DNA of 64,000 nucleotides from GCF_054482525.1 NZ_CM137006.1; one strand, 5' to 3'; positions 1,984 through 62,852 are shown, numbered from the stretch's first letter. Notes: generated from the letters alone by a model not told the origin. Numbers and translations: made by a program.

Positions 1984-3207
1984 ATGCAAACCCAATTAAC
2001 TGAAGAGATGCGGCAGAACGCGCGCGCGCTGGAAGCCGACAGCATCCTGCGCGCCTGTGTTCACTGCGGATTTTGTACCGCAACCTGCCCAACCTATCAG
2101 CTTCTGGGCGATGAACTGGACGGGCCGCGCGGGCGCATCTATCTGATTAAACAGGTGCTGGAAGGCAACGAAGTCACGCTTAAAACACAGGAGCATCTCG
2201 ATCGCTGCCTCACTTGCCGCAATTGTGAAACCACCTGTCCTTCTGGTGTGCGCTATCACAATTTGCTGGATATCGGGCGTGATATTGTCGAGCAGAAAGT
2301 GAAACGCCCACTGCCGGAGCGAATACTGCGCGAAGGATTGCGCCAGGTAGTGCCGCGTCCGGCGGTCTTCCGTGCGCTGACGCAGGTAGGGCTGGTGCTG
2401 CGACCGTTTTTACCGGAACAGGTCAGAGCAAAACTGCCTGCTGAAACGGTGAAAGCTAAACCGCGTCCGCCGCTGCGCCATAAGCGTCGGGTTTTAATGT
2501 TGGAAGGCTGCGCCCAGCCTACGCTTTCGCCCAACACCAACGCGGCAACTGCGCGAGTGCTGGATCGTCTGGGGATCAGCGTCATGCCAGCTAACGAAGC
2601 AGGCTGTTGTGGCGCGGTGGACTATCATCTTAATGCGCAGGAGAAAGGGCTGGCACGGGCGCGCAATAATATTGATGCCTGGTGGCCCGCGATTGAAGCA
2701 GGTGCCGAGGCAATTTTGCAAACCGCCAGCGGCTGCGGCGCGTTTGTCAAAGAGTATGGGCAGATGCTGAAAAACGATGCGTTATATGCCGATAAAGCGC
2801 GTCAGGTCAGTGAACTGGCGGTCGATTTAGTCGAACTTCTGCGCGAGGAACCGCTGGAAAAACTGGCAATTCGCGGCGATAAAAAGCTGGCCTTCCACTG
2901 TCCGTGTACCCTACAACATGCGCAAAAGCTGAACGGCGAAGTGGAAAAAGTGTTGCTTCGTCTTGGATTTACCTTAACGGACGTTCCCGACAGCCATCTG
3001 TGCTGCGGTTCAGCGGGAACATATGCGTTAACGCATCCCGATCTGGCGCGCCAGCTGCGGGATAACAAAATGAATGCGCTGGAAAGCGGCAAACCGGAAA
3101 TGATCGTCACCGCCAACATTGGTTGCCAGACGCATCTGGCGAGCGCCGGTCGTACCTCTGTGCGTCACTGGATTGAAATTGTAGAACAAGCCCTTGAAAA
3201 GGAATAA
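1984..3207 (+). CDS. glcF: Glycolate oxidase iron-sulfur subunit GlcF
   Basis: ATG at 1984 gives 407 aa starting MQTQLTEEM; two CxxCxxCxxxCP ferredoxin-like motifs (CVHCGFCTATCP, CLTCRNCETTCP) and C-terminal CCG domains. The track's longer ORF from 1837 overlaps glcE and was not used. Confidence 0.88.
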   Translation: MQTQLTEEMRQNARALEADSILRACVHCGFCTATCPTYQLLGDELDGPRGRIYLIKQVLEGNEVTLKTQEHLDRCLTCRNCETTCPSGVRYHNLLDIGRDIVEQKVKRPLPERILREGLRQVVPRPAVFRALTQVGLVLRPFLPEQVRAKLPAETVKAKPRPPLRHKRRVLMLEGCAQPTLSPNTNAATARVLDRLGISVMPANEAGCCGAVDYHLNAQEKGLARARNNIDAWWPAIEAGAEAILQTASGCGAFVKEYGQMLKNDALYADKARQVSELAVDLVELLREEPLEKLAIRGDKKLAFHCPCTLQHAQKLNGEVEKVLLRLGFTLTDVPDSHLCCGSAGTYALTHPDLARQLRDNKMNALESGKPEMIVTANIGCQTHLASAGRTSVRHWIEIVEQALEKE

Positions 3208-3211
3208 CAAA

Positions 3212-3616
3212 ATGAAAACTAAAGTCATTCTTAGCCAGCAAATGGCGAGTGCAATTATTGCCGCAGGTCAGGAAGAGGCGCAGAAAAATAACTGGTCTGT
3301 TTCCATTGCTGTTGCCGATGACGGCGGTCATCTGCTGGCGTTAAGTCGCATGGACGATTGCGCGCCGATTGCGGCTTATATCTCCCAGGAGAAAGCGCGT
3401 ACCGCCGCGCTGGGGCGTCGTGAAACTAAGGGCTATGAAGAGATGGTGAACAACGGACGTACCGCGTTCGTGACTGCGCCGTTATTAACGTCGCTGGAAG
3501 GCGGCGTACCGGTTGTTGTGGATGGGCAAATTATTGGTGCCGTGGGCGTTTCTGGTTTAACCGGAGCACAGGATGCGCAGGTCGCGAAAGCGGCAGCAGC
3601 GGTGTTGGCGAAATAA
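3212..3616 (+). CDS. glcG: GlcG (heme-binding GlcG/HbpS-like protein)
   Basis: 134-aa ORF from ATG 3212 (MKTKVILSQQ...), immediately after the glcF stop. Confidence 0.8.
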   Translation: MKTKVILSQQMASAIIAAGQEEAQKNNWSVSIAVADDGGHLLALSRMDDCAPIAAYISQEKARTAALGRRETKGYEEMVNNGRTAFVTAPLLTSLEGGVPVVVDGQIIGAVGVSGLTGAQDAQVAKAAAAVLAK

Positions 3617-3637
3617 GCGAAAACGAGGAGATAAACA

Positions 3638-5809
3638 ATGAGTCAAACCATAACCCAGAGCCGTTTACGCATTGACGCCAATTTTAAACGTTTTGTGGAT
3701 GAAGAAGTTTTACCGGGAACAGGGCTGGACGCTGCGGCGTTCTGGCGCAATTTTGATGAGATCGTTCACGATCTGGCACCAGAAAATCGTCAGTTGCTGG
3801 CAGAACGCGATCGCATTCAGGCGGCGCTTGATGAGTGGCATCGCAGCAATCCGGGGCCGGTTAAAGATAAAGAGGCCTATAAATCTTTCCTGCGTGAACT
3901 GGGCTACCTGGTGCTACAACCGGAGCGCGTGACGGTGGAAACCACGGGCATTGACAGCGAAATCACCAGCCAGGCGGGGCCACAGCTGGTGGTTCCGGCA
4001 ATGAACGCCCGCTACGCGCTGAACGCGGCGAACGCTCGCTGGGGCTCACTGTACGATGCGTTATACGGCAGCGACATCATCCCGCAGGAAGGGGCGATGG
4101 TCAGCGGCTACGATCCGCAACGCGGTGAGCAGGTTATCGCCTGGGTTCGGCGTTTCCTCGATGAATCACTACCGCTGGAAAACGGCAGCTATCAGGATGT
4201 GGTGGCGTTTAAGGTGGTCGATAAACAATTACGCATCCAGTTGAAAAATGGTAAAGAAACCACGTTACGTACCCCGGCGCAGTTTGTCGGTTACCGTGGC
4301 GATGCCGCTGCGCCGACCTGCATTTTGCTGAAAAATAACGGTCTGCATATTGAACTGCAAATTGATGCCAACGGGCGGATTGGCAAAGACGATCCGGCGC
4401 ATATCAACGATGTTATCGTCGAAGCGGCCATCAGTACCATTCTCGACTGCGAAGATTCGGTCGCTGCGGTTGATGCGGAAGATAAAATCCTGCTGTACCG
4501 CAACCTGCTGGGCCTGATGCAGGGGACTCTGCAAGAGAAAATGGAAAAAAACGGTCGGCAAATCGTGCGTAAACTGAATGACGATCGTCATTACACCGCC
4601 GCCGATGGCTCTGAAATTTCTCTGCACGGACGCTCGCTGCTGTTTATCCGCAACGTGGGTCATTTGATGACTATTCCTGTGATTTGGGACAGCGAAGGCA
4701 ATGAAATCCCGGAAGGCATTCTTGATGGCGTCATGACTGGCGCGATTGCCCTCTATGATTTAAAAGTGCAGAAAAACTCGCGCACTGGCAGCGTCTATAT
4801 TGTGAAACCGAAAATGCACGGTCCGCAGGAAGTGGCGTTCGCCAACAAACTGTTTACCCGCATTGAGACAATGCTCGGTATGGCACCGAATACCCTGAAA
4901 ATGGGCATTATGGATGAAGAACGCCGGACCTCGCTGAACTTGCGTAGCTGTATCGCTCAGGCGCGTAACCGCGTGGCGTTCATCAATACCGGTTTCCTCG
5001 ACCGTACCGGCGATGAAATGCATTCGGTGATGGAAGCTGGCCCGATGCTGCGTAAAAACCAGATGAAATCGACGCCGTGGATCAAAGCCTACGAACGTAA
5101 TAACGTGCTTTCCGGTCTGTTCTGTGGGCTGCGCGGTAAAGCGCAAATCGGTAAAGGCATGTGGGCAATGCCGGACCTGATGGCAGACATGTACAGCCAG
5201 AAGGGCGACCAACTGCGTGCCGGGGCAAACACAGCCTGGGTTCCGTCACCAACCGCTGCTACGCTCCATGCGCTGCACTACCACCAAACCAACGTACAGA
5301 GCGTGCAGGCCAACATTGCCCAGAGCGAGTTCAATGCTGAATTTGAACCGCTGCTGGACGATCTGCTGACTATTCCGGTGGCTGAAAACGCTAACTGGTC
5401 AGTGGAAGAGATCCAACAAGAGCTGGATAACAACGTGCAGGGGATTCTGGGGTACGTGGTGCGTTGGGTGGAGCAGGGGATTGGTTGTTCAAAAGTGCCG
5501 GATATTCACAACGTGGCGTTGATGGAAGACCGTGCAACGTTGCGTATCTCCAGCCAGCATATCGCCAACTGGTTACGTCACGGTATTCTGACCAAAGAAC
5601 AGGTGCAGGCGTCGCTGGAGAATATGGCGAAAGTGGTTGATCAGCAAAACGCTGGCGATTCGGCTTATCGTCCGATGGCGGGGAATTTCGCTAACTCGTG
5701 TGCTTTTAAAGCTGCCAGCGATTTAATCTTCCTCGGCGTGAAACAGCCAAACGGCTATACCGAACCGTTATTACACGCCTGGCGTTTACGCGAAAAAGAA
5801 AGTCATTAA
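3638..5809 (+). CDS. glcB: Malate synthase G
   Basis: 723-aa ORF; length and sequence typical of malate synthase G; RBS GAGGAG upstream. Confidence 0.92.
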
Positions 5810-5821
5810 TAGCGTCAAAAA

Positions 5822-5849
5822 AGCCCCGGCAAGTTTTATTGTCGGGGCT
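5822..5849 (+). terminator. Possible stem-loop after glcB
   Basis: Inverted repeat agccccggcaa...ttgtcggggct directly after the glcB stop; weak T-tract. Confidence 0.35.
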
Positions 5850-6163
5850 ATGATAGTAACTGCGGTAGTACATTTATCCCGGAAATAACCGGAGCGATTA
5901 TCAGGGTTTAACAATATTAAATACCCGTAGCGCATTACTAGCGGGCCTAAAACAACAATATGGACATCTTAACGATATTCTGCGCCTGCGTGTGCGGAAC
6001 AGAAACCCTTACCCGATATACTTGTTATGCCAGAGGTAGCAATTGCGTTAGCAGCGTACTGTTGCTGTAAAGTATAACGCCTATATTTTACAGTTCAGTC
6101 CTCTTTTGCTTATTACAACCTTAAGTATATCAAGCATATAAAGATAATAAGAGACTGAACAAT

Positions 6164-7846
6164 ATGGTTAGCTGGACCCAAATGTATATGCCGATGGGAG
6201 GACTGGGGCTATCCGCTCTGGTCGCCCTGATCCCGATAATATTCTTCTTCGTTGCACTCGCGGTATTACGTCTGAAAGGACATGTCGCCGGAGCAATAAC
6301 CCTTATATTATCTATTCTGATTGCGATATTCGCCTTTAAAATGCCGATTGATATGGCATTTGCTGCTGCGGGCTATGGCTTTATTTATGGTTTATGGCCT
6401 ATTGCGTGGATTATTGTCGCGGCGGTGTTCCTCTATAAATTAACCGTTGCCAGCGGCCAGTTCGATATTATCCGCAGCTCGGTTATCTCCATCACCGACG
6501 ATCAGCGTTTGCAGGTGTTACTGATTGGTTTCTCCTTTGGCGCGTTGCTGGAAGGGGCGGCTGGCTTTGGTGCGCCGGTGGCGATTACCGGTGCGCTGCT
6601 GGTGGGCCTGGGCTTCAAACCGTTATACGCGGCGGGGCTGTGTCTGATTGCCAACACTGCGCCGGTGGCGTTTGGTGCGTTGGGTGTGCCGATTCTGGTC
6701 GCCGGTCAGGTAACGGGAATCGATCCGTTCCACATTGGCGCAATGGCGGGACGTCAGTTACCGTTCCTGTCGGTTCTTGTGCCGTTCTGGCTGGTAGCAA
6801 TGATGGACGGCTGGAAAGGGGTGAAAGAGACGTGGCCAGCGGCGCTGGTTGCTGGGGGAAGCTTCGCTGTCACGCAGTTCTTTACCTCTAACTATATTGG
6901 TCCGGAACTGCCGGATATTACTTCGGCGCTGGTGAGTATCGTCTCACTCGCTTTATTCCTTAAAGTCTGGCGGCCGAAAAATACCGAAACGGCAATCAGC
7001 ATGGGACAATCCGCAGGTGCGATGGTGGTGAATAAACCATCTTCTGGCGGTCCCGTGCCTTCAGAATATAGTCTGGGGCAAATCATTCGTGCGTGGTCAC
7101 CGTTTTTAATCTTAACGGTGCTGGTCACCATCTGGACCATGAAGCCGTTTAAAGCGTTATTTGCTCCGGGCGGCGCGTTTTATTCACTGGTGATTAATTT
7201 CCAGATCCCTCATTTGCATCAACAAGTGTTGAAAGCGGCACCCATTGTCGCCCAACCAACGCCAATGGATGCGGTGTTTAAATTCGACCCTCTCTCGGCT
7301 GGCGGCACCGCTATTTTTATTGCGGCGATTATCTCTATCTTCATCCTCGGCGTGGGCATCAAGAAAGGGATTGGCGTCTTTGCCGAAACGCTAATTAGTC
7401 TGAAGTGGCCGATATTGTCGATTGGCATGGTGCTGGCGTTCGCCTTCGTCACCAACTATTCCGGTATGTCCACCACGCTGGCGCTGGTACTGGCAGGTAC
7501 AGGCGTGATGTTCCCGTTTTTCTCACCGTTTCTCGGCTGGCTGGGCGTATTCCTTACCGGCTCGGACACCTCCTCTAACGCCCTGTTTGGTTCACTGCAA
7601 TCGACCACGGCGCAGCAAATCAACGTCTCTGACACTCTGCTGGTGGCAGCAAATACCAGCGGCGGCGTAACTGGCAAGATGATCTCCCCGCAATCTATCG
7701 CCGTGGCCTGCGCCGCGACGGGAATGGTGGGCCGAGAATCTGAACTGTTCCGCTACACCGTGAAGCACAGTCTGATCTTTGCCAGTGTGATCGGCATTAT
7801 CACGCTGTTGCAGGCGTATGTGTTTACCGGGATGTTAGTTTCGTAA
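6164..7846 (+). CDS. glcA: Glycolate/lactate permease (LctP family)
   Basis: 560-aa multi-pass membrane protein with lactate permease family features; downstream of glcB as in the E. coli glc locus. Confidence 0.88.
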
Positions 7847-7855
7847 GTCAATAAA

Positions 7856-7890
7856 GCCGGATGATCGTTAATATCATCCGGCTTCATTTA
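7856..7890 (+). terminator. Rho-independent terminator after glcA
   Basis: Perfect hairpin gccggatgat-cgttaat-atcatccggc followed by a T-rich run. Confidence 0.7.
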
Positions 7891-8311
7891 CATTACTCTG
7901 TCTTATTAATGGAAAATTATTTCCCGCTTTATTATCCATGTAACAATAATGTTTCGCGTTCAGATAACATGCTAAATAATTAAGAGCGTGAGAACATCTA
8001 TTATTTATCACGCAAAACAAGTCAGTATTAATTATGTTCGCTTGATGAGCAAACACCGTTCTATCTGTTGCTTTTGCAATCTTAATCGTTAAAACTACCA
8101 ACAAATTTATATAGTTACGTTGTGAAAGGTTGTTAATTTTTTGTTTATTGAAATTTCGTAAAAATAACCAGCCAGACATCGAATAGGGGTTATTCTTATA
8201 AATTTCACCTGTTTTTCTATCAATGATGCCGTTTTCTTAAGAATGGAGGAAGTTATTAAAGAAGATAAAGCATAAAACTATTTCCCCGGTTACGAATCTT
8301 TTAACTTTGTT

Positions 8312-54427: not shown

Positions 54428-57274
54428 TCAGAAAGTCACGTTCAGTGTGGCCTGACCGTTATAACCTTCAGCGCTGCTGCCGCTGACACTGTGGGCATAA
54501 CCGGCCTGAACGCCCAGGGTGATATTTTCCCGGACACGGGCTTCCAGTCCGGCCTGCAGGTCCAGTGACGTGCCATTCTGGGACGGTGAGAACGTCATGT
54601 TACTGCCGGCTGCGGCTGTACCCATGCTCATGTCTCCCCGGGAGCTGAAGGTGCGGATAACAGAAGGCTGTACCCACCAGTTCACCGGCAGTTCACTCAC
54701 GCTGTGTTTGGCACTGTCGCGCAGGGTGTCACGGGATGAGGTGCCTTCGCCAAAGGTCATATCGTTGTGGCTGCCCAGACGGAAACCGGCACGCACATGT
54801 TGTGCACTGCCATGCCCGAACTTCACATAACCGGCGTTATCCTGACCGTCATCCAGGGAGAGCCCCTGCCAGGTGTACTGCAGTTGTGGCTCCAGCATCA
54901 GGTTGTCAGTGATACTGAAGGGCAGACCGGTTTCCAGTGAGCCCAGCCAGCCCCAGCCCCGGGCGCGGAAGTCGTTATTGTCCGATGACGCTTTCATGCT
55001 GTGGCGGGTTCCCTGTGCCACAATGTCAGCCCACAGGCCGGAGGATGTGTGTACCAGATTCAGGTATCCGCCCAGACTGCCGGCATCATCCCGGACCGTG
55101 CCGGCGCGGGAGCCGTCATCATCCTTAACATCAACGGAAGAATGGCCTGCAGCACCATACACCCCTGTCGTCAGAGACATACCGGCAACCTCTGTTCTGA
55201 GCAGGTCACCCTCCAGACGGACGAAGCCATAGCTGCCGCTGCTTTCCGGCGTGGCCCCACGGGCAATACCGCCGTTGTTATCGTGCCCGAGATGACCGCC
55301 CTGAATGCTGAGACGGACGCTGTTATTTTCACCGTTTACACCGGTCTGATGGCTGCGGGAGCCTGCCAGAATCCGGTCATAGTCCATTGCCTGTGTCAGC
55401 ATGGAGGCATACAGGGGGACTTCAGCACGATAAGCATTTTCACTGCGCAGGTACCAGTCTTCATCGCTGTCACGGTTCAGGGTGTAGTTAAAGGCGCCGG
55501 CCTGAAGCGGGCGGCTCAGGGCAAACGCACCTTCTTCTGTGGTGGCACCATTCTGTGCATCCACAACCCGGATACCCTGTCCGGTGGTTGCCACCCCGAG
55601 GTTACTGTTTCCGACATTTGTGAACGCAAGCCAGGTTTTGCCGGTTGCCTGGCCACCATTAATCACCAGCTGGTCAGAGGCATTGCTGCCATCAAGGCGA
55701 ACACGCATATTGATGGTGCCCCCCTGACCGGTGAGGTTACTGGTGGTCAGTTTATGGAACGTTACCGGGGAGTCGCCTTTTGCAACAGCACGGCTCAGCG
55801 CGGCATCCGGTGTCGTCTGATTATCAAAGTGAATCTCTCCTGCGTTAACAATATCGCCGGTACTGACCACATCACCATTCAGTACCATGCTGGCGCCTTT
55901 ACTGAGCTGTGTTCTGCCACTCAGACTTCCCCCGGCAGCCAGCGTCAGTGTTCCACGATGTCCGACAGTGGTGTTGCCTGCCTGTCCCCCGGCATTAACC
56001 GTAAAGCTGCCGCCATTTTCCAGTAGCAGGCCGCTGGCCTGCCCGGATATGCCATCAATACTGAACTTACCGCTGGCATTGGTCCCCTCAACAGTGGCAC
56101 CACTGTCTGCTATCAGGGCACCACCGGATGTCATGGTGACATCTGTTGCCTTACCACCGGCAGACACTGCCAGGGTACCGCCGTCATCCACCAGTGTTTT
56201 CTGCGCTGAATGGCCCTCCAGTACATCCAGGCGACCGCCGGACTCCAGAACAACGCCGTCAGCCTTACCGTTTTCCACCGTGAAATTGCCCAGACGGTTG
56301 CTGCCGGTGACGGTTGCCGCCGTACTGGTGACCAGTGCGCCGCCCTGCGTCAGGGTGACATTCGTGGCTGTACCACCGGCGTTCACCTGCAGTTTGCCTT
56401 TCTGGTTAACGGTGGTGAAATCCGCCAGACCACCTTCCTTGATAATCTGCCAGCCGTCACTGTTAACAACAGTGCCAGACGCCGTACCGCCGTTGTGCAC
56501 ATACTGGTACCCCCCATTCAGCGTGGTATCCAGTGCGTGACCATGTACAGTCTGGTCGCCGCCGGCATAAACCACAGTGGTATTTGCCGTTCCTTCAGCA
56601 GCCACAATCTGACGACCATTTTTATTGATGGTGGTGCGTACGGCATCTCCGTAGACGGTCTGCCCGGTATCACCATTTTCCGCATCCGGTCCTCCTTCCG
56701 CGCCAGTATTCACAACCGTGTCGGTTGCCATTGCGCCGGATTTGACGGCCTGCCAGCCCTTCTCATTAATGACGGTACCCGTTGCAATCCCGCCTTCATG
56801 TACCCACTGCTCACCGCCGTTCAGAGTGGTGTTCACTGCCTGCCCCTGAAGGCTCTGTCCGCCTCCGGCCCTGATAACCGTGTCTGAAACGCTTCCTCCG
56901 GCATTCACTCTCTGAAGACCACCACCGGTGACAGTAGTGTTGTTGGCGATACCGCCATTTTGTATCCATTGCCCGCCGGTATTGGCCTCGTTATCCGGCC
57001 CATACTCCAGACCGGTACTGATGGTCATTCCGTTGGCTGTACCGAAGACAATCTGGTTGTCATGATTTTCCAGTGCTCCGCCGCTCACGGTTTCTCCCGC
57101 CTGTACAACCGTGTCAGCAGCCAGTACCGGGAGTGATGTGACAGCAGCAAGAGACAGCGCAACCGCCACACCGGCGCGTTTTCCCCGTGAGCGGGCCAGT
57201 TCGGAGGCCACCACCAGGGTGCCCGTAATGTGATTCCATACCAGCCTGTAGCTGGTGTTCAGATGTCGTTTCAT
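54428..57274 (-). CDS. flu: Antigen 43-family self-associating autotransporter adhesin
   Basis: 948-aa from ATG 57274 ([31 protein letters not shown]... extended signal peptide); Gly/Thr/Asn-rich beta-helical passenger; C-terminal beta-barrel ending ...NVTF. Confidence 0.9.
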
Positions 57275-57491
57275 CAGCTTTTCCTTACAGAGGGTGAATA
57301 AAAAAGCCGGTACCCACAAATGTGGATACCGGCAGGTACAAAACAGCATGGTCAGATAAAGTGGTTTTTCCCGGACATAAATGCTTCCCCTCTCTCATCC
57401 GCCTGAGAAGTATCAGTCCGTTGTGTGCAATTCCGTTCTGCATGATGAAGAGATTCAGCTGCCTTTTCGCAGGCCATTAACCACTATAAAC

Positions 57492-57527
57492 GATCGATAT
57501 AAACGATCGATATCTGTTTTATCGATC
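57492..57527 (-). promoter_or_regulatory. Three clustered GATC sites upstream of the Ag43 gene (Dam/OxyR phase-variation switch)
   Basis: GATC at 57492-57495, 57505-57508 and 57524-57527 within 36 bp, about 220-250 bp upstream of the Ag43 start. Confidence 0.75.
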
Positions 57528-57646
57528 GTTTTATTCTATTAATAACAAGGCAGCCACGCAAGAGAAACAGGAGGAGTATGAGGGGTTTGTGTCATGTTTT
57601 CAGTTGGTTAACGCAATGTAATCAGGCATTTCCTCTGGCAGAGTGT

Positions 57647-58519
57647 TCAGAAGAAAATCCAGTTCCATACAGCGCGGGCAACAGAGACCACCGAGTCACG
57701 GACGGCACGCAGAACCGTGCGTGCAACAGAGGCAATACAGACGCTCTCCGCTGTGTCAAATATCCGGTCCACCGCACCGGTAAACTGTTCACGGGCCTGA
57801 GACCGGACAGATTCCGTGCGCAGCTCGTCCTGCAGGCGGGTCATCAGGGGACTGGCGGCATGGTCGGGAAGCGCTGTCATGAGCGCACTGACCAGCGTAT
57901 CCAGTTCCCAGCCGGTGCGGGCCGATACGGCCACAACCGGATGTACGGGCCGGAACAGACGGAATACCGCCTCCGTTTTTTCGCGAATATTCTGTGCCTG
58001 TGCGGGAGAAGGCTGAATACCGGCCATATCCCATTCATGGCAGGGCTCCGTTTTGTCGGCCTGCGTCACCACAAACAGCACCTGCTGATGTCCCCGGTGC
58101 AGGATGTGTCGCCAGAAATACTCATCCACAGACAGGGCGCGGTCATCGGCTTTAATCAGCCACAGCACCAGGTCCAGTTCGGGCAGAATGTCACGGTACA
58201 GGGCTTCATACTCTGCATCTCTGTCCCGGCTCTCGCCCACCCCGGGCAGGTCAGTGATAACCATGCTGTGACCGTGGCCACTCAGACGGAAGCGCCGCAC
58301 TTCCCGGGTGCCGGCGTGAACATCACTGACCGGGGTGACCTCCCCCTGAAACAGTGCATTACAGAGTGAGGATTTACCGGCCCCGCTTTTACCCATAATG
58401 CCAATCACGGGTTCGTGACTGGTGAGTTTGCGCAGATGTTCCAGGATGTGACGGGAAAGTGAGTAAGGCAGGGAGGAGAGCGGTTTTTCAATTGCCTCAA
58501 TGGCATCAGACGGATTCAT
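57647..58519 (-). CDS. yeeP: YeeP/YfjP/YkfA-family GTPase
   Basis: 290-aa from ATG 58519 (MNPSDAIEAIEKPLSS...); P-loop GIMGKSGAGKSSLCNALF; G3-like DLPGVGES. Confidence 0.8.
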   Translation of the reverse strand: MNPSDAIEAIEKPLSSLPYSLSRHILEHLRKLTSHEPVIGIMGKSGAGKSSLCNALFQGEVTPVSDVHAGTREVRRFRLSGHGHSMVITDLPGVGESRDRDAEYEALYRDILPELDLVLWLIKADDRALSVDEYFWRHILHRGHQQVLFVVTQADKTEPCHEWDMAGIQPSPAQAQNIREKTEAVFRLFRPVHPVVAVSARTGWELDTLVSALMTALPDHAASPLMTRLQDELRTESVRSQAREQFTGAVDRIFDTAESVCIASVARTVLRAVRDSVVSVARAVWNWIFF

Positions 58520-58748
58520 ACATGTATTCCCGGTGAAAAAAGACAAAACCCCGCACACCGGAAAGATGGCGGGGGGATTCACGGAGATAATATCTGCCTG
58601 AAATTATTTGGAATGCAGGTATATGTGGCTGATTTGTATCAGCTAATGAGTACAGGTCTGAATCTAATCTGACAGTCCGCTCTGTGCCAGGAGCGGACAT
58701 TGTTTTCCAACTATTACCTAAGCCTGCGAACCATCTCATCTTCACCCC

Positions 58749-59636
58749 TTAAATTCTCAATGTATCGATAACCGCTCGTAGGGCGGGTGACACATTGCGG
58801 TGCGGATAATAGATATATGAACCCTCCAGGCGTTGGCTGTAGCATTGCAAAACTCTGATTAGCGCCCCCTGTTCTATATCATCAGACACTAATTCCTCCG
58901 GAACATAGGCCAGCCCCAGACCTAGCCTTGCGGCTTTGGCTTCCATATAACTGTCAGCAAAGGCCCATTGTCCCTGAGGCTGATGGGTGATCTTTTTACC
59001 GTCCTGATTGAGTTCCCAGACATACAGACTGCCGTCGCCGAACTGGTAAGCGATGCAGGGATGACCTACTAAATCGGTGGGGGTTTGTGGAAATCCGTAG
59101 CGCTGAAAGTGCCCGGGCGTGCCGACAACAGCCATCTCCATATCGGGCGAAATGCGCACCGCAACCATACCGCTATCCACTTCCGAGCCCAGACGTATAC
59201 CGGCATCGAAGCGCTCAGTAATAATATCGACAAACCGGCTTTCGCTGATGAGCTCCAGCCGAATATCCGGGTATCGTTGTTTAAACACCGCCAGCTTCGG
59301 CAGCAGCACTTTATCAATGGCGTGCTGGCTCGCATTAATTCGGACCGTACCCGATGGTGTATGGCGATAATGGGCCAGTGTGGCAAGCCCCATATCTAAG
59401 GCGTCAAATCCAGATTCGACGTTTCGATAGAGTAACTCGCCGGCATGGGTGAGCGATAACTTGCGCGTGGTGCGTACCAGAAGCTGCACGCCCAGTCGCT
59501 CTTCCAGCTCGCGCACTGCACGGCTAATTCCTGATTGCGCCAGGCCAAGCCTCTGCGCGGCGGCGGTAAAACTCCCTTCTCGCACGACCTGCATAAACAG
59601 ATAGAGATCGTTATAGTTTTCCCGTTTCGCCATCAT
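58749..59636 (-). CDS. LysR-family transcriptional regulator
   Basis: 295-aa; N-terminal HTH (FTAAAQRLGLAQSGISRAVRELEERLGVQLLVRTTRKLSLT); divergent from a hydrolase/transporter pair. Confidence 0.85.
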   Translation of the reverse strand: MMAKRENYNDLYLFMQVVREGSFTAAAQRLGLAQSGISRAVRELEERLGVQLLVRTTRKLSLTHAGELLYRNVESGFDALDMGLATLAHYRHTPSGTVRINASQHAIDKVLLPKLAVFKQRYPDIRLELISESRFVDIITERFDAGIRLGSEVDSGMVAVRISPDMEMAVVGTPGHFQRYGFPQTPTDLVGHPCIAYQFGDGSLYVWELNQDGKKITHQPQGQWAFADSYMEAKAARLGLGLAYVPEELVSDDIEQGALIRVLQCYSQRLEGSYIYYPHRNVSPALRAVIDTLRI

Positions 59637-59788
59637 CCTTCCCCTGCTGCATCACAATTCAGAACAATATGTTATTAATCTTAGCATTTTTTACCCTCTA
59701 ATTAGCACTATTAATGCTAACTATAATGTGCGCGTTGCAACAAAGCACAGCAGTGTTATCCGTATGAAACCAGTATCTGGCATATTTT

Positions 59789-60940
59789 ATGAGGGGGATT
59801 TTGATGACTGCTTTCACCCAAAAATTGACAGCCGCGATACCCACCATGCTGTTATGCGTATCATTAAGTGGAGTCACAAATATGAGTTACGCTGATACAA
59901 CCAATCCGAACGCGCCCGTTTCGCAGGTCGAGAAATGGGATAAAACTTTTGCTGAGAGCACGAAAGTTGATCACCGTAAGGTGACCTTTCCGAACCGGTA
60001 CGGGATCACCTTAGTCGGGGATCTCTATATACCGAAGGATCGTGGCGATCGCAAGCTGGCAGCAATTGCTGTTAGTGGCCCCTTCGGGGCGGTGAAAGAG
60101 CAATCCAGCGGCCTGTATGCGCAGACGCTGGCTGAACGGGGGTTTGTCACTCTGGCTTTTGACCCTTCATACACGGGTGAAAGCGGTGGCTACCCGCGAA
60201 ACGTCGCATCTCCGGATATCAACACCGAGGATTTCAGCGCGGCGGTTGATTTCTTAGGCCTGCAAAAAGAGGTGGATCGCAACCGTATCGGGTTGCTCGG
60301 CATCTGCGGATGGGGTGGCATGGCCTTAAACGACGCCGCGATGGACACACGTGTCAAGGCGGTGGCGAGCAGCGTGATGTATGACATGAGCCGTGCAATG
60401 GGGCATGGCGTGGGCGATGGCAAAGACCGCTATACCACTGCCGATCGTCGTGCCGTATTGCAGTATTTGAACATGCAGCGCTGGAAGGATGCTGAAAATG
60501 GCGCTTTCGCGCCAGGCGGGCATGATATTTACGTTGATGAGAAGGGCAACGTCACCGCTTCCGATCGTATTTTACCGGAAACTTTGCCAGCGAATTCTAA
60601 TCCGGTATTGAAAGAGTTCTTTGATTATTACCGCATGCCGCGTGGTTTCCATGCGCGTTCGGTCAACTCAACCAGTGCCTGGAATGCAACCATGCCTCTG
60701 TCATTTATGAATATGCCGCTGCTGAGTTACGCTAATGAAGTTACTATCCCTACACTCATCGTGACCGGTGAAAAAGCCCATTCACGCTATTTTGCTGAAG
60801 ATGCCTTTAAGGCAATCGGCAGCAAAGAGAAAGAGTTAGTGATTGTCCCCGAGGCAAACCATGTTGATCTGTACGACAACGTTGCGGGTAAGATCCCATT
60901 TGCCAAATTTGAGCAATTTTTCAAGGCAAACTTAAGATAA
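59789..60940 (+). CDS. Secreted alpha/beta-hydrolase-fold protein (dienelactone-hydrolase-like, putative Cys nucleophile)
   Basis: 383-aa (alternative ATG at 59804); signal peptide; nucleophile-elbow-like GICGWGG. Confidence 0.65.
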   Translation: MRGILMTAFTQKLTAAIPTMLLCVSLSGVTNMSYADTTNPNAPVSQVEKWDKTFAESTKVDHRKVTFPNRYGITLVGDLYIPKDRGDRKLAAIAVSGPFGAVKEQSSGLYAQTLAERGFVTLAFDPSYTGESGGYPRNVASPDINTEDFSAAVDFLGLQKEVDRNRIGLLGICGWGGMALNDAAMDTRVKAVASSVMYDMSRAMGHGVGDGKDRYTTADRRAVLQYLNMQRWKDAENGAFAPGGHDIYVDEKGNVTASDRILPETLPANSNPVLKEFFDYYRMPRGFHARSVNSTSAWNATMPLSFMNMPLLSYANEVTIPTLIVTGEKAHSRYFAEDAFKAIGSKEKELVIVPEANHVDLYDNVAGKIPFAKFEQFFKANLR

Positions 60941-60956
60941 CCCGAAAGGTTTACCA

Positions 60957-60986
60957 GGCCACCTGTCGTAAACGGGTGGCTTTTAA
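60957..60986 (+). terminator. Rho-independent terminator after the hydrolase gene
   Basis: Hairpin gccacc-tgtcgtaaacg-ggtggc followed by tttt. Confidence 0.55.
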
Positions 60987-61117
60987 CTGCCTGGTGTGAT
61001 GCAGAATATGCCGCATCGCCCTATATTCTCACCCAACTATTATGTCGTTATTCCCTGAATAACTTCTGACCCGATTGCGCTTGAATCTGGCTGGTTCGAT
61101 ATTAAGGGGGGCTAATA

Positions 61118-62311
61118 ATGTCCACTGTAAGTCTCAAACAATTATACGGAAAAACGCATGCATACTGGAGCGGCGTATTCGCCATGACGCTTTGCGTGTT
61201 TGTGCTGATCGCTTCTGAGTTTATGCCAGTCAGCCTGCTTACGCTCATTGCCCATGATTTGCACGTTACCGAAGGGCTGGCAGGGCAAGGAATTGCTGTC
61301 TCTGGTGCGCTGGCGGTGCTTACCAGTCTGACTATCTCCCGTATTGTCGGAGACCTGAATCGAAAATATCTTTTGCTGGGACTGACGGTCTTAATGGCCA
61401 TATCGGGAATAATTATCACTATAGCACCTGACTATCCGGTTTATATGCTGGGGAGGGCTCTGATTGGTGTTGTCATTGGAGGGTTCTGGTCAATGTCGGC
61501 TGCAACCGCCATTCGGCTCGTGCCGCAGCACCAGGTTTCCCGCGCACTGGCAATTTTTAACGGCGGAAACGCACTGGCCACCGTTGTGGCAGCGCCACTT
61601 GGTAGCTATCTGGGGACAACCATCGGCTGGCGTGGGGCCTTTTTATGTCTGGTCCCCCTTGCGATAGCTGCGTTCATCTGGCAATGGGTCAGTCTGCCTC
61701 CGATGGAAAGTGATAAAACACAAAAGCCACAGAGATCTGTGCTTCGCCTGTTCAGCGTTGCCATCGTACCAACGGGACTGCTGGCCTGCGGACTCTTCTT
61801 TATGGGACAGTTTGCTTTATTTACCTACGTGCGCCTCTTTCTGGAGAGCGTCACCAGAGTGGGACCTTCTGATCTTTCTCTGATTTTGCTCGCAATAGGT
61901 GTAGCAGGCTTTGTCGGCACAATGATCGTCTCAACATTCCTGAACACCATATTTTATAAGACCTTAATAATGATCCCGTTGCTTATGGCAGCGATTACCG
62001 GTGCGTTACTGCTGGTCGGACACCATATCTGGGCTGTTGCCGTTTTACTCAGCCTGTGGGGGCTACTTGCGACAGCTGCGCCAACGGGGTGGTGGACATG
62101 GATAGCACGCGCGTTACCCGAAGATGCAGAGACGGGGGGAGGCCTCATGGTTGCAGTGATTCAGTTATCTATTGCACTTGGTTCAACGGCTGGAGGTCTG
62201 GTATTCGACAGTCTGGGATGGAGAAGTGCTTTTGGTTTAAGTGGTTTGTTACTTCTGGGAGCGGTAGCGATGACATGTGCCACATCCCGTCAAAACAGGA
62301 AGGCGCAGTAG
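61118..62311 (+). CDS. MFS-family transporter (12 TMS)
   Basis: 397-aa highly hydrophobic ORF with MFS-like loop motifs. Confidence 0.8.
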   Translation: MSTVSLKQLYGKTHAYWSGVFAMTLCVFVLIASEFMPVSLLTLIAHDLHVTEGLAGQGIAVSGALAVLTSLTISRIVGDLNRKYLLLGLTVLMAISGIIITIAPDYPVYMLGRALIGVVIGGFWSMSAATAIRLVPQHQVSRALAIFNGGNALATVVAAPLGSYLGTTIGWRGAFLCLVPLAIAAFIWQWVSLPPMESDKTQKPQRSVLRLFSVAIVPTGLLACGLFFMGQFALFTYVRLFLESVTRVGPSDLSLILLAIGVAGFVGTMIVSTFLNTIFYKTLIMIPLLMAAITGALLLVGHHIWAVAVLLSLWGLLATAAPTGWWTWIARALPEDAETGGGLMVAVIQLSIALGSTAGGLVFDSLGWRSAFGLSGLLLLGAVAMTCATSRQNRKAQ

Positions 62312-62836
62312 CGCAATCCTTTTATTTCTGGCGTACGCTCTTTAAGGCATCCGGCTGAGAGGCTAATGATCACTCCTCGCTCACAACGGACCTTCAGCTC
62401 AGCCGCTCCGGCCGCTTCATGCCATGAATGTACGCAGCCAGTCAGAATATTAAGGTGCGGATTTCAGTTCACTTGCCAGCCCAGTGATACAGGACAGTAA
62501 TGACCAACAATTTGGTATTGATACAACAAGTTGCGGCCCCGGTTCGTGGGGGAGATGAAACGAAGGTAGCTGAAGTTACTGAAATGAAGAATTCAGAGAG
62601 ACTGAATGATATGCCTCACCTTTAGTGAATAGTGTAAAAACGGGAGACTCTCACCCGAGATTATCCACTCATGCTCAATGTATAACTTTCGTGCCCCTCA
62701 CAGGTAAGAGCCGGATACATTCGTTGTGTATGCTGCAGAATTGGTAACCGGGGCCCTGCAGTCTTTAACTCCATGTCTTGTGCTGCTCATTTGCCACAAA
62801 ATCCTGGTACGTCTGCTCAATCATTTCATTCAGCAG

Positions 62837-62852
62837 TTTTTTTGGGGGGGGG
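62837..62852 (+). repeat. T7-G9 homopolymeric tract in an ORF-poor remnant
   Basis: tttttttggggggggg in the sequence; the minus-strand frame across it is open for ~83 codons but has no start codon. Confidence 0.6.

Follow-up and report, generated by a model that had tools for sequence, protein, structure and literature searches.

The window analyzed here is a 64,000-nucleotide stretch of NZ_CM137006.1 (assembly GCF_054482525.1), numbered on one strand from its first nucleotide, and our subject is a three-gene cassette at positions 58749–62311. Listing of the open reading frames (ORFs) in 56500–64000 confirmed three of them in this interval, encoding a LysR-type regulator on the minus strand, then an alpha/beta hydrolase and a major facilitator superfamily (MFS) transporter on the plus strand. 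Their LysR, hydrolase, and MFS domains in Pfam agree with the regulator-enzyme-transporter layout given by an initial annotation of this DNA, which had also placed a CP4-like module beside the cassette. The window over the cassette stretch is 100% identical to Escherichia coli AH50 (NZ_CP169755.1), whose annotation confirms that module on the left, with GTPase, Ag43/Cah, DUF905, DUF932, antirestriction, RadC, YeeU/CbtA, and DUF4942 genes. An annotation of the cassette genes themselves exists in RefSeq, in generic terms only.

The hydrolase ORF spans 59789–60940 on the plus strand (383 amino acids), and its true start is most likely the ATG at 59804, giving a gene at 59804–60940 and a product of 378 amino acids. 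This ATG is preceded by a GAGGGGG Shine-Dalgarno sequence, kept in nine aligned species, and used by PGAP/RefSeq. The product is matched in Pfam by overlapping alpha/beta-hydrolase models, namely PETase (33.4 bits), Hydrolase_4, DLH (21.7 bits), and Peptidase_S9. The match to the dienelactone hydrolase (DLH) model, PF01738, covers residues 107–194 only, with no stretch passing alone, and PETase and Hydrolase_4 score higher. In a sequence search of the PDB, the hydrolase matches Pseudomonas aeruginosa PA2218 (2HDW) at E 1.4e-121, with identical GICGWGG and ANHVDLYD motifs, and E. coli YcjY (5XB6) at E 1.5e-40, with GICAGAG as the elbow motif.

An AlphaFold2 model of the hydrolase was built from 26 diverse homologues, with a predicted local distance difference test score (pLDDT) of 87.9 and a predicted template modeling score (pTM) of 0.86; its residues 1–37 are disordered. 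The features that define an alpha/beta-hydrolase fold are seen in the model, as there is a central sheet, the nucleophile sits on a strand-helix turn, and a histidine lies past the last strand. More than 1700 alpha/beta hydrolases of the PDB match at E ≤ 0.001. The structural ranking is headed by PA2218 (49.0) and YcjY (40.3), followed by a Chloroflexus hydrolase (7QJM, 32.1), the fungal thioesterase DcsB (32.0), GrgF (31.1), PET46 (27.3), and a feruloyl esterase (26.5), and dienelactone hydrolases score 23.0–25.7 with the core only. The initial annotation had called the enzyme dienelactone-hydrolase-type, and this resemblance holds only at the superfamily level; DLH structures are not the nearest structural neighbors.

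Similarity to PA2218 and YcjY extends over the full length in both sequence and structure, lid included. The motifs of the PA2218/YcjY clade are all present, namely G(P/x)xGxVKEQ after beta-3, the G-I-C elbow, and the NH.DLYD histidine loop. In a set of 82 homologous sequences, which come from about 75 species of many phyla and are all more than 50% identical to the hydrolase, the motif residues Lys98 and Gln100 occur in every sequence and Glu99 and Asp355 in 81 each, and they are also found in the YcjY and PA2218 alignments. Literature searches for PA2218, YcjY, and opdE returned no biochemical function. The hydrolase is a new member of a known and widespread family that is structurally solved but functionally orphan.

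The nucleophile elbow GICGWGG, encoded at 60299–60319 (+) with the Cys168 codon at 60305–60307, aligns with GICAG of YcjY. In the model, Cys168 lies between strand 157–167 and helix 169–180, which is the nucleophile-elbow position. A cysteine had thus been correctly assigned to the elbow by the initial annotation, but the motif reads G-I-C-G-W and is not the literal GxCxG given there. Cys168 is conserved in 82 of the 82 homologues and is the sole cysteine of the mature hydrolase. The catalytic histidine, His353 (60860–60862, +), is located in ANHVDLYD after strand 343–348 and is likewise a histidine in all 82. Among more distant relatives, Gly or Ser replaces the Cys in five cluster representatives, of which four also lack the His. 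Because this joint loss in a distant subclade fits the pattern expected of a catalytic pair, it speaks for Cys168 and His353 as that pair. The designation ‘Cys-type’ is therefore supported by the elbow position, the invariance of Cys and His, their joint loss, and the lone mature Cys. The distant Cys-less subclade may consist of pseudoenzymes; three of these relatives carry a C-terminal extension of about 150 residues.

The candidate catalytic acid is Glu323 (60770–60772, +), in the loop right after strand 317–322. This position is Glu in 78 and Asp in 3 of the 82 homologues, adding up to Glu or Asp in 81, and its canonical post-beta-7 location and conservation make Glu323 the likely acid. The triad of Pseudomonas DLH consists of Cys123, His202, and Asp171, complemented by substrate-binding arginines. 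In this comparison, the canonical acid position is occupied by Asp in DLH and by Glu323 in the hydrolase. Besides Cys168 and His353, the invariant residues of the 82 homologues are K98, Q100, D120, S127, D149, D181, R183, R226, Y276, and H283. Residue 196 is Ser, and Asp194 is the conserved aspartate of MYDM.

Sequence features predict a Sec-type signal peptide at residues 1–30 of the hydrolase (59804–59893, +), with cleavage at SYA/DT. The N-terminus, MTAFTQKLTAAIPTMLLCVSLSGVTNMSYA followed by DT, contains a basic residue (lysine), the most hydrophobic 11-residue window of the protein, and the small-x-small cleavage motif S-Y-A, and the whole region falls within the disordered residues 1–37 of the model, in agreement with the signal peptide claimed earlier. 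‘Secreted’, the word used in that claim, most likely means periplasmic here.

By a simple heuristic, a hydrophobic N-terminal region was found in 66 of the 82 homologues, 13 of which have a lipobox, and several homologues outside the 66 visibly have signal peptides. Alphaproteobacterial homologues, from Bosea, Brevundimonas, Rhizobium, Mesorhizobium, and Paracoccus, contain twin-arginine motifs such as RRDLMKLTGAG. Nine homologues, mostly from Clostridia, have no N-terminal extension, and the same is true of YcjY. As predicted from these N-termini, extracytoplasmic location is a conserved property of the exported PA2218-type subfamily.

The kind of export signal varies by group. Enterobacterial copies have Sec-type signals, many copies from Bacteroidota and Pseudomonas have lipoboxes, and motifs of the twin-arginine translocation (Tat) type also appear in some gammaproteobacterial homologues. 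One enzyme family is predicted to use three export routes, Sec, lipoprotein, and Tat.

The regulator gene occupies 58749–59633 on the minus strand and encodes 294 amino acids; an alternative ATG one codon upstream would move its start to 59636 and lengthen the product to 295. Pfam recognizes HTH_1 (PF00126, E 7e-24) and LysR_substrate (PF03466, E 7e-36) in the protein, which reaches none of the NCBIfam equivalog cut-offs; its top score is for YafC (NF040888), 196.5 of the 470 bits required. When compared with K-12 proteins, it is 40% identical to PgrR/YcjZ (214 bits) and 33% identical to YafC (157 bits).

The regulator and hydrolase genes diverge from a 170-bp region, and a regulator gene divergent from its own target is the canonical arrangement for LysR-type transcriptional regulators (LTTRs). 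Nine cassettes ranging from the island allele of E. coli to Aeromonas were aligned, and the alignment, together with direct reading of the sequence, revealed a conserved control region at 59657–59727, with invariant columns ending in ACTA.AAT. The -10 element ACTATAAT, with TATAAT at 59722–59727, faces the hydrolase. A dyad, TTAGCA-N7-TGCTAA, is located at 59702–59720, where the -35 element would be, and an additional TTAGCA is found at 59681–59686. The hexamer TAATTA, spaced 17 bp from the -10, makes a poor -35. The dyad and repeats are kept from E. coli to Aeromonas. LTTR sites are T-N11-A dyads, with an activation site overlapping the -35, and a poor -35 is typical of activator-dependent LTTR promoters. 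Judged from this general LTTR architecture, the dyads are putative binding sites of the LysR protein.

The hydrolase 5′ untranslated region (UTR) of about 75 nucleotides (59728–59803) is as conserved as coding sequence among Enterobacterales. Its fold is no better than those of shuffled sequences (z -0.8), and no Rfam match was found in 58400–64000, save a chance-level hit at E 0.47. With no Rfam match and no significant UTR fold, an RNA element in the UTR or the spacers was dropped from consideration.

The third gene, at 61118–62311 on the plus strand, encodes an MFS transporter of the type with 12 transmembrane segments (397 amino acids; Pfam MFS_1, E 9e-40), which is DHA1 or NepI-like. Among curated models, NepI (NF007578) ranks first with 271 bits over the full length, short of its equivalog cut-off of 584 bits, and is followed by a sugar-efflux model and then by Cmx/CmrA chloramphenicol efflux. 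The spacer between hydrolase and MFS genes is 177 bp here. Because it is 4–196 bp in other species, the two genes are taken to be operonic there. The spacer in the window contains a hairpin at 60956–60986 (+), an 11-bp stem followed by UUUU. It folds with -23.1 kcal/mol (z -2.6), which only 1 of 200 shuffles equaled, and may be an intrinsic terminator or attenuator.

Linkage of the three genes was surveyed at the best 80 hydrolase loci, with one genome per species, counting LysR proteins above 230 bits and MFS proteins above 260 bits as orthologous; recurrent neighbors were taken from 75 loci. The order in the window, LysR divergent from hydrolase followed by MFS, recurs in Enterobacterales, Psychrobacter, Vogesella, and Luteimonas. 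A second order, LysR divergent from MFS with the hydrolase farther downstream, is found in Bosea, Rhizobium, Brevundimonas, and Paracoccus. Because the linkage outlasts rearrangement across Gamma-, Beta-, and Alphaproteobacteria, it argues for functional coupling of the three genes.

Outside Proteobacteria, the recurrent hydrolase neighbors are a PF18050 cyclophilin-like gene (19 loci), a hexapeptide acetyltransferase gene (18), and a CMD-family gene (16), joined by AraC and MerR regulators, short-chain dehydrogenase/reductase (SDR), aldo/keto reductase, zinc-dependent alcohol dehydrogenase, old-yellow-enzyme-like, NMO, FMN reductase, and flavodoxin genes. These neighborhoods are a small-molecule, carbonyl, or redox context. 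The small PF18050 protein is the commonest non-regulatory neighbor of the hydrolase across phyla (19 of 75 loci) and often has a signal peptide; its gene is absent from the E. coli cassettes.

All three cassette genes are intact in the listed genomes and under strong purifying selection. When compared with Kosakonia, Klebsiella, and a second E. coli allele described below, the ratio of nonsynonymous to synonymous substitution rates (dN/dS) is 0.04–0.13 across the three genes, with 0.05–0.07 for LysR and 0.06–0.13 for MFS, and it is low even against the 93%-identical Kosakonia copy. None of the three proteins matched a PADLOC defense-system model at E ≤ 0.01, and with zero matches the cassette was dropped as a defense system.

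Whether the cassette is island cargo or core had been left open by the initial annotation, which called for a presence/absence check across E. coli genomes. A sensitive DNA search detected the cassette in 982 of 5426 complete E. coli genomes. The allele in the window (allele A, at least 95% identity) is present in 103 of the 5426 (1.9%), and a second allele (allele B) of about 75% DNA identity is the best match for 882 records, with some genomes carrying both. The three-gene unit is also carried on plasmids of Kosakonia, Pantoea, Klebsiella pneumoniae, and Salmonella, and the LysR-hydrolase pair alone on Leclercia, Enterobacter, and Mixta plasmids. Because the cassette is patchy in E. coli, lies within an island backbone, and has its nearest relatives on the mobile DNA of other genera, it is island cargo, not core. 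Instead of universal conservation with a housekeeping role, which would mark a core gene set, a patchy unit bounded by island backbone was found.

The cargo can be delimited closely. A 3.7-kb segment at 58683–62394, containing the cassette genes only, was imported, and it is 93.2% identical by blastn to the Kosakonia cowanii plasmid NZ_CP107078.1. The left junction is within 58683–58702, as similarity to cassette-free islands runs to about 58702, and the right junction is within 62377–62394, as the cassette-free backbone resumes at 62377. At both junctions, the stretches shared with Kosakonia and with the backbone overlap by about 18–20 bp, which may stem from recombination at short stretches in common, or from chance. 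A search for direct or inverted repeats flanking the 3.7-kb segment found none, and transposon-like boundaries were dropped for lack of such terminal repeats. The right backbone, 62377–63993, is 98.6% identical in the cassette-free E. coli C25 (NZ_CP127314.1), in which iron-uptake genes, encoding a FecCD-type ABC transporter and a TonB-dependent receptor, occupy the place of the cassette to its left. The position appears to be an exchangeable cargo slot of an island family.

In O157:H7, O55:H7, E. coli C, O145, and 042, allele B is flanked by the thrW-island region on one side and paoD on the other. K-12 MG1655 lacks 6,129 bp that are present between yagP and paoD in O157:H7 Sakai (K-12 297239–297720 and from 297716; Sakai locus 1997–8125). 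The missing stretch comprises the 5′ part of yagP, an SDR oxidoreductase gene, a small ORF, and allele B (ECs_0309-0311). K-12 thus lost allele B by a 6.1-kb deletion, and because the deletion took the 5′ part of yagP, the substrate-binding-domain fragment left in K-12 is its scar, which explains the yagP pseudogene. The fragment was also considered as a remnant of the cassette LysR gene, and this was rejected, as the two are only 28–29% identical and yagP is a different, neighboring LTTR gene in truncated form.

The island around the cassette is mosaic and partly decayed, full of pseudogenes and insertion sequence (IS) elements. To the right of the cassette are gene remnants, an AlpA regulator, IS100, and a P4-type integrase, and then a second CP4-like island. 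A T7 G9 run at 62837–62852 lies in a decayed gene fragment, annotated in RefSeq as a frameshifted partial hypothetical gene (about 62765–62979, minus strand), and may be a frameshift site. At the left junction, about 50 nucleotides past the LysR stop, a consensus scan marked a terminator-like GC-rich hairpin (58675–58698, +) with a 9-bp stem of 6 GC pairs followed by ATTGTTTTCC; such a pattern is equally frequent in shuffled sequence, making it weak evidence of a terminator. In the identical genome AH50, no tRNA gene is found within 20 kb downstream of the island. Past the integrase, AH50 914000–950000 contains the second CP4-like module, a gene for a TIR-domain protein, inovirus Gp2-like genes, tssF/tssG fragments of a type VI secretion system, a gene for a 1652-residue AAA-domain protein, nanY with an MFS gene, and tia, forming a long mosaic of tandem islands.

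We conceived, with slightly better than even confidence, that the cassette is an inducible mobile accessory module in which a LysR-activated periplasmic thiol hydrolase and a DHA1 transporter deal with an exogenous small molecule. In the 170-bp region between the divergent genes, the LysR protein would bind the conserved dyads; once it senses a small-molecule effector, it would turn on the hydrolase promoter, whose -35 is weak, and it probably also controls its own expression. After Sec-dependent export to the periplasm, the hydrolase would split an ester, lactone, thioester, or amide bond; the reaction would run via a covalent acyl-thioenzyme formed at Cys168, in which His353 serves as base and Glu323 is the likely acid. 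The NepI-like DHA1 transporter would move the compound or its product across the inner membrane, most probably from cytoplasm to periplasm, judged from its MFS relatives. Detoxification or scavenging of the small molecule would be the joint task of the three genes, and the likeliest candidates for that molecule are xenobiotics and esters or lactones made by plants or microbes. The invariant Arg183, Arg226, Arg280, and His283, the lid arginines and histidine, suggest a carboxylate or another anionic substrate. The data themselves establish the gene content, the fold, the catalytic residues as judged from conservation, the export signal, the mobility, the selection, and the conserved linkage, whereas we infer the activation logic, the direction of transport, and the chemical class of the substrate.

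Several observations weigh against this proposal. The chemistry is deduced from fold and residues, and the literature on YcjY and PA2218 yielded no substrate for their clade. The closest characterized structural relatives, DcsB and GrgF, use carrier-protein thioesters, which are absent from the periplasm, and a lone catalytic thiol is unusual in this oxidizing compartment. The MFS relatives work as exporters; this agrees with detoxification but is at odds with a simple catabolic scheme of hydrolyzing outside and importing the product. The strong spacer hairpin makes co-transcription of hydrolase and MFS genes uncertain in the island allele. The predicted cleavage after SYA is a heuristic reading and not the output of a dedicated signal-peptide tool. 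Finally, the consensus scan called no promoter in the divergent region, where the -35 and LysR-site assignments are pattern-based. The scan would have missed the hydrolase promoter because its -35 is weak, and because the scan is blank there, the promoter proposal rests on the phylogenetic footprint.

A more tentative idea, which we rate well below even, is that the PA2218-type family performs an undescribed reaction on a small molecule common in gut or environment, or on an envelope component, and that Proteobacteria pair this enzyme with a PgrR-like sensor and a NepI-like transporter. Exported PA2218-type hydrolases more than 50% identical to one another span Proteobacteria, Bacteroidota, Firmicutes, Melainabacteria, Spirochaetes, and Elusimicrobia, many of them from gut organisms, and their conservation is unusually high, with an invariant active site rich in arginine. 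If the idea is true, the island copy is a tractable three-gene system, for which K-12 offers a natural null background.

The main alternative, which we hold to be unlikely, is that the cassette is a periplasmic counterpart of K-12 pgrR-ycjY. The hydrolase would then be a peptidase or amidase acting on peptidoglycan-derived or other D-amino-acid peptides, the PgrR-like protein a repressor responding to a cell-wall fragment, and the transporter a carrier of the fragment or product. From the protein comparisons, the LysR-hydrolase pair of the cassette looks like a paralogue of the pgrR-ycjY pair, and over-expression of ycjY was observed to cause filamentation (PMC3614548). However, YcjY has no demonstrated activity, and it is cytoplasmic, lacking the N-terminal extension, whereas the cassette hydrolase is predicted to be exported. 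The 40% identity of the regulators is ordinary for LTTR paralogues, with only two K-12 LTTRs having been compared. Moreover, peptidoglycan-recycling genes of the mpaA, ycjG, mppA, ampG, and ldcA types are not among the recurrent neighbors of the 75 loci, where redox and small-molecule enzymes are found instead, and this weakens the case for a peptidoglycan-peptide role.

Slightly less likely still is inert hitch-hiking cargo, meaning genes that are carried along with the island and neither expressed nor used in E. coli. The rarity of the cassette (1.9% of complete E. coli genomes), the mosaic, partly decayed island with its pseudogenes and IS elements, and the loss of a related allele from K-12 without obvious harm would all be expected of such cargo. 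Nevertheless, none of the three ORFs is disrupted in the listed genomes, the control region has been conserved, and dN/dS is 0.04–0.13 even against the Kosakonia copy; because of this selection signal, inert cargo is held to be unlikely.

It is improbable that the hydrolase is a quorum-quenching lactonase, which after export would open N-acyl-homoserine lactones (AHLs), as Serratia UilS does, or other signaling lactones of competitors. In favor of this reading, the best NCBIfam match of the hydrolase is the UilS family AHL lactonase (NF047920; E 2e-18), UilS is an AHL-degrading enzyme that had initially been annotated as a dienelactone hydrolase (PMC11633161), and an exported site suits the interception of external signals. 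The match, however, reaches only 67 of the 400 bits set as cut-off and is confined to residues 78–198, the generic core up to the nucleophile. UilS is a protein of 285 amino acids and is not among the sequence matches to solved structures, and the hydrolase neighborhoods show no luxI/luxR link.

A true dienelactone hydrolase (carboxymethylenebutenolidase) left from chloroaromatic or aromatic degradation is very improbable on the structural ranking and the genomic context, even though the cassette hydrolase shares with such enzymes an alpha/beta fold, a nucleophilic Cys, and conserved arginines, and its Pfam DLH score is just over the gathering score of 21.

As part of the island, the cassette is ordinary accessory cargo and not a virulence, defense, or mobility function. 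As a compact, mobile, and self-regulated unit, it could provide a handle for finding the substrate of the family, and its LysR-controlled promoter could be usable as a biosensor.

Known systems resemble the cassette in part. The DLH family (PF01738) has in common with the cassette hydrolase the alpha/beta fold, the Cys nucleophile, and the His, with a borderline, partial Pfam match. DcsB (7D78) and GrgF (6LZH) are fungal trans-acting polyketide thioesterases or transferases, but they are eukaryotic and cytosolic and act on carrier-protein-bound polyketides. Among NepI and the DHA1 efflux pumps of E. coli, NepI is the best curated model for the MFS protein, with a score too low for its substrate to be transferred. 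In K-12, pgrR (ycjZ) is divergent from ycjY, as the corresponding genes are in the cassette, and ycjY heads ycjY-ymjD-ymjC-mpaA. This pair differs in having no MFS partner and in being chromosomal core, and YcjY lacks the N-terminal signal and linker of about 55 residues, which leaves it in the cytoplasm. PA2218, deposited in 2006 as a ‘hypothetical protein’ (2HDW) and with no assigned function, adjoins PA2219 (opdE). We take OpdE to be an MFS protein homologous to the cassette transporter and PA2220 to be a LysR regulator. PA2218 appears to be a lipoprotein, whereas the cassette hydrolase is predicted to be a soluble protein after Sec cleavage. The comparison links two structural-genomics orphans, PA2218 (solved in 2006) and YcjY (solved in 2018), to a conserved regulator and transporter, and places them in a family that is predicted to be mostly extracytoplasmic and has an invariant Cys-His pair.

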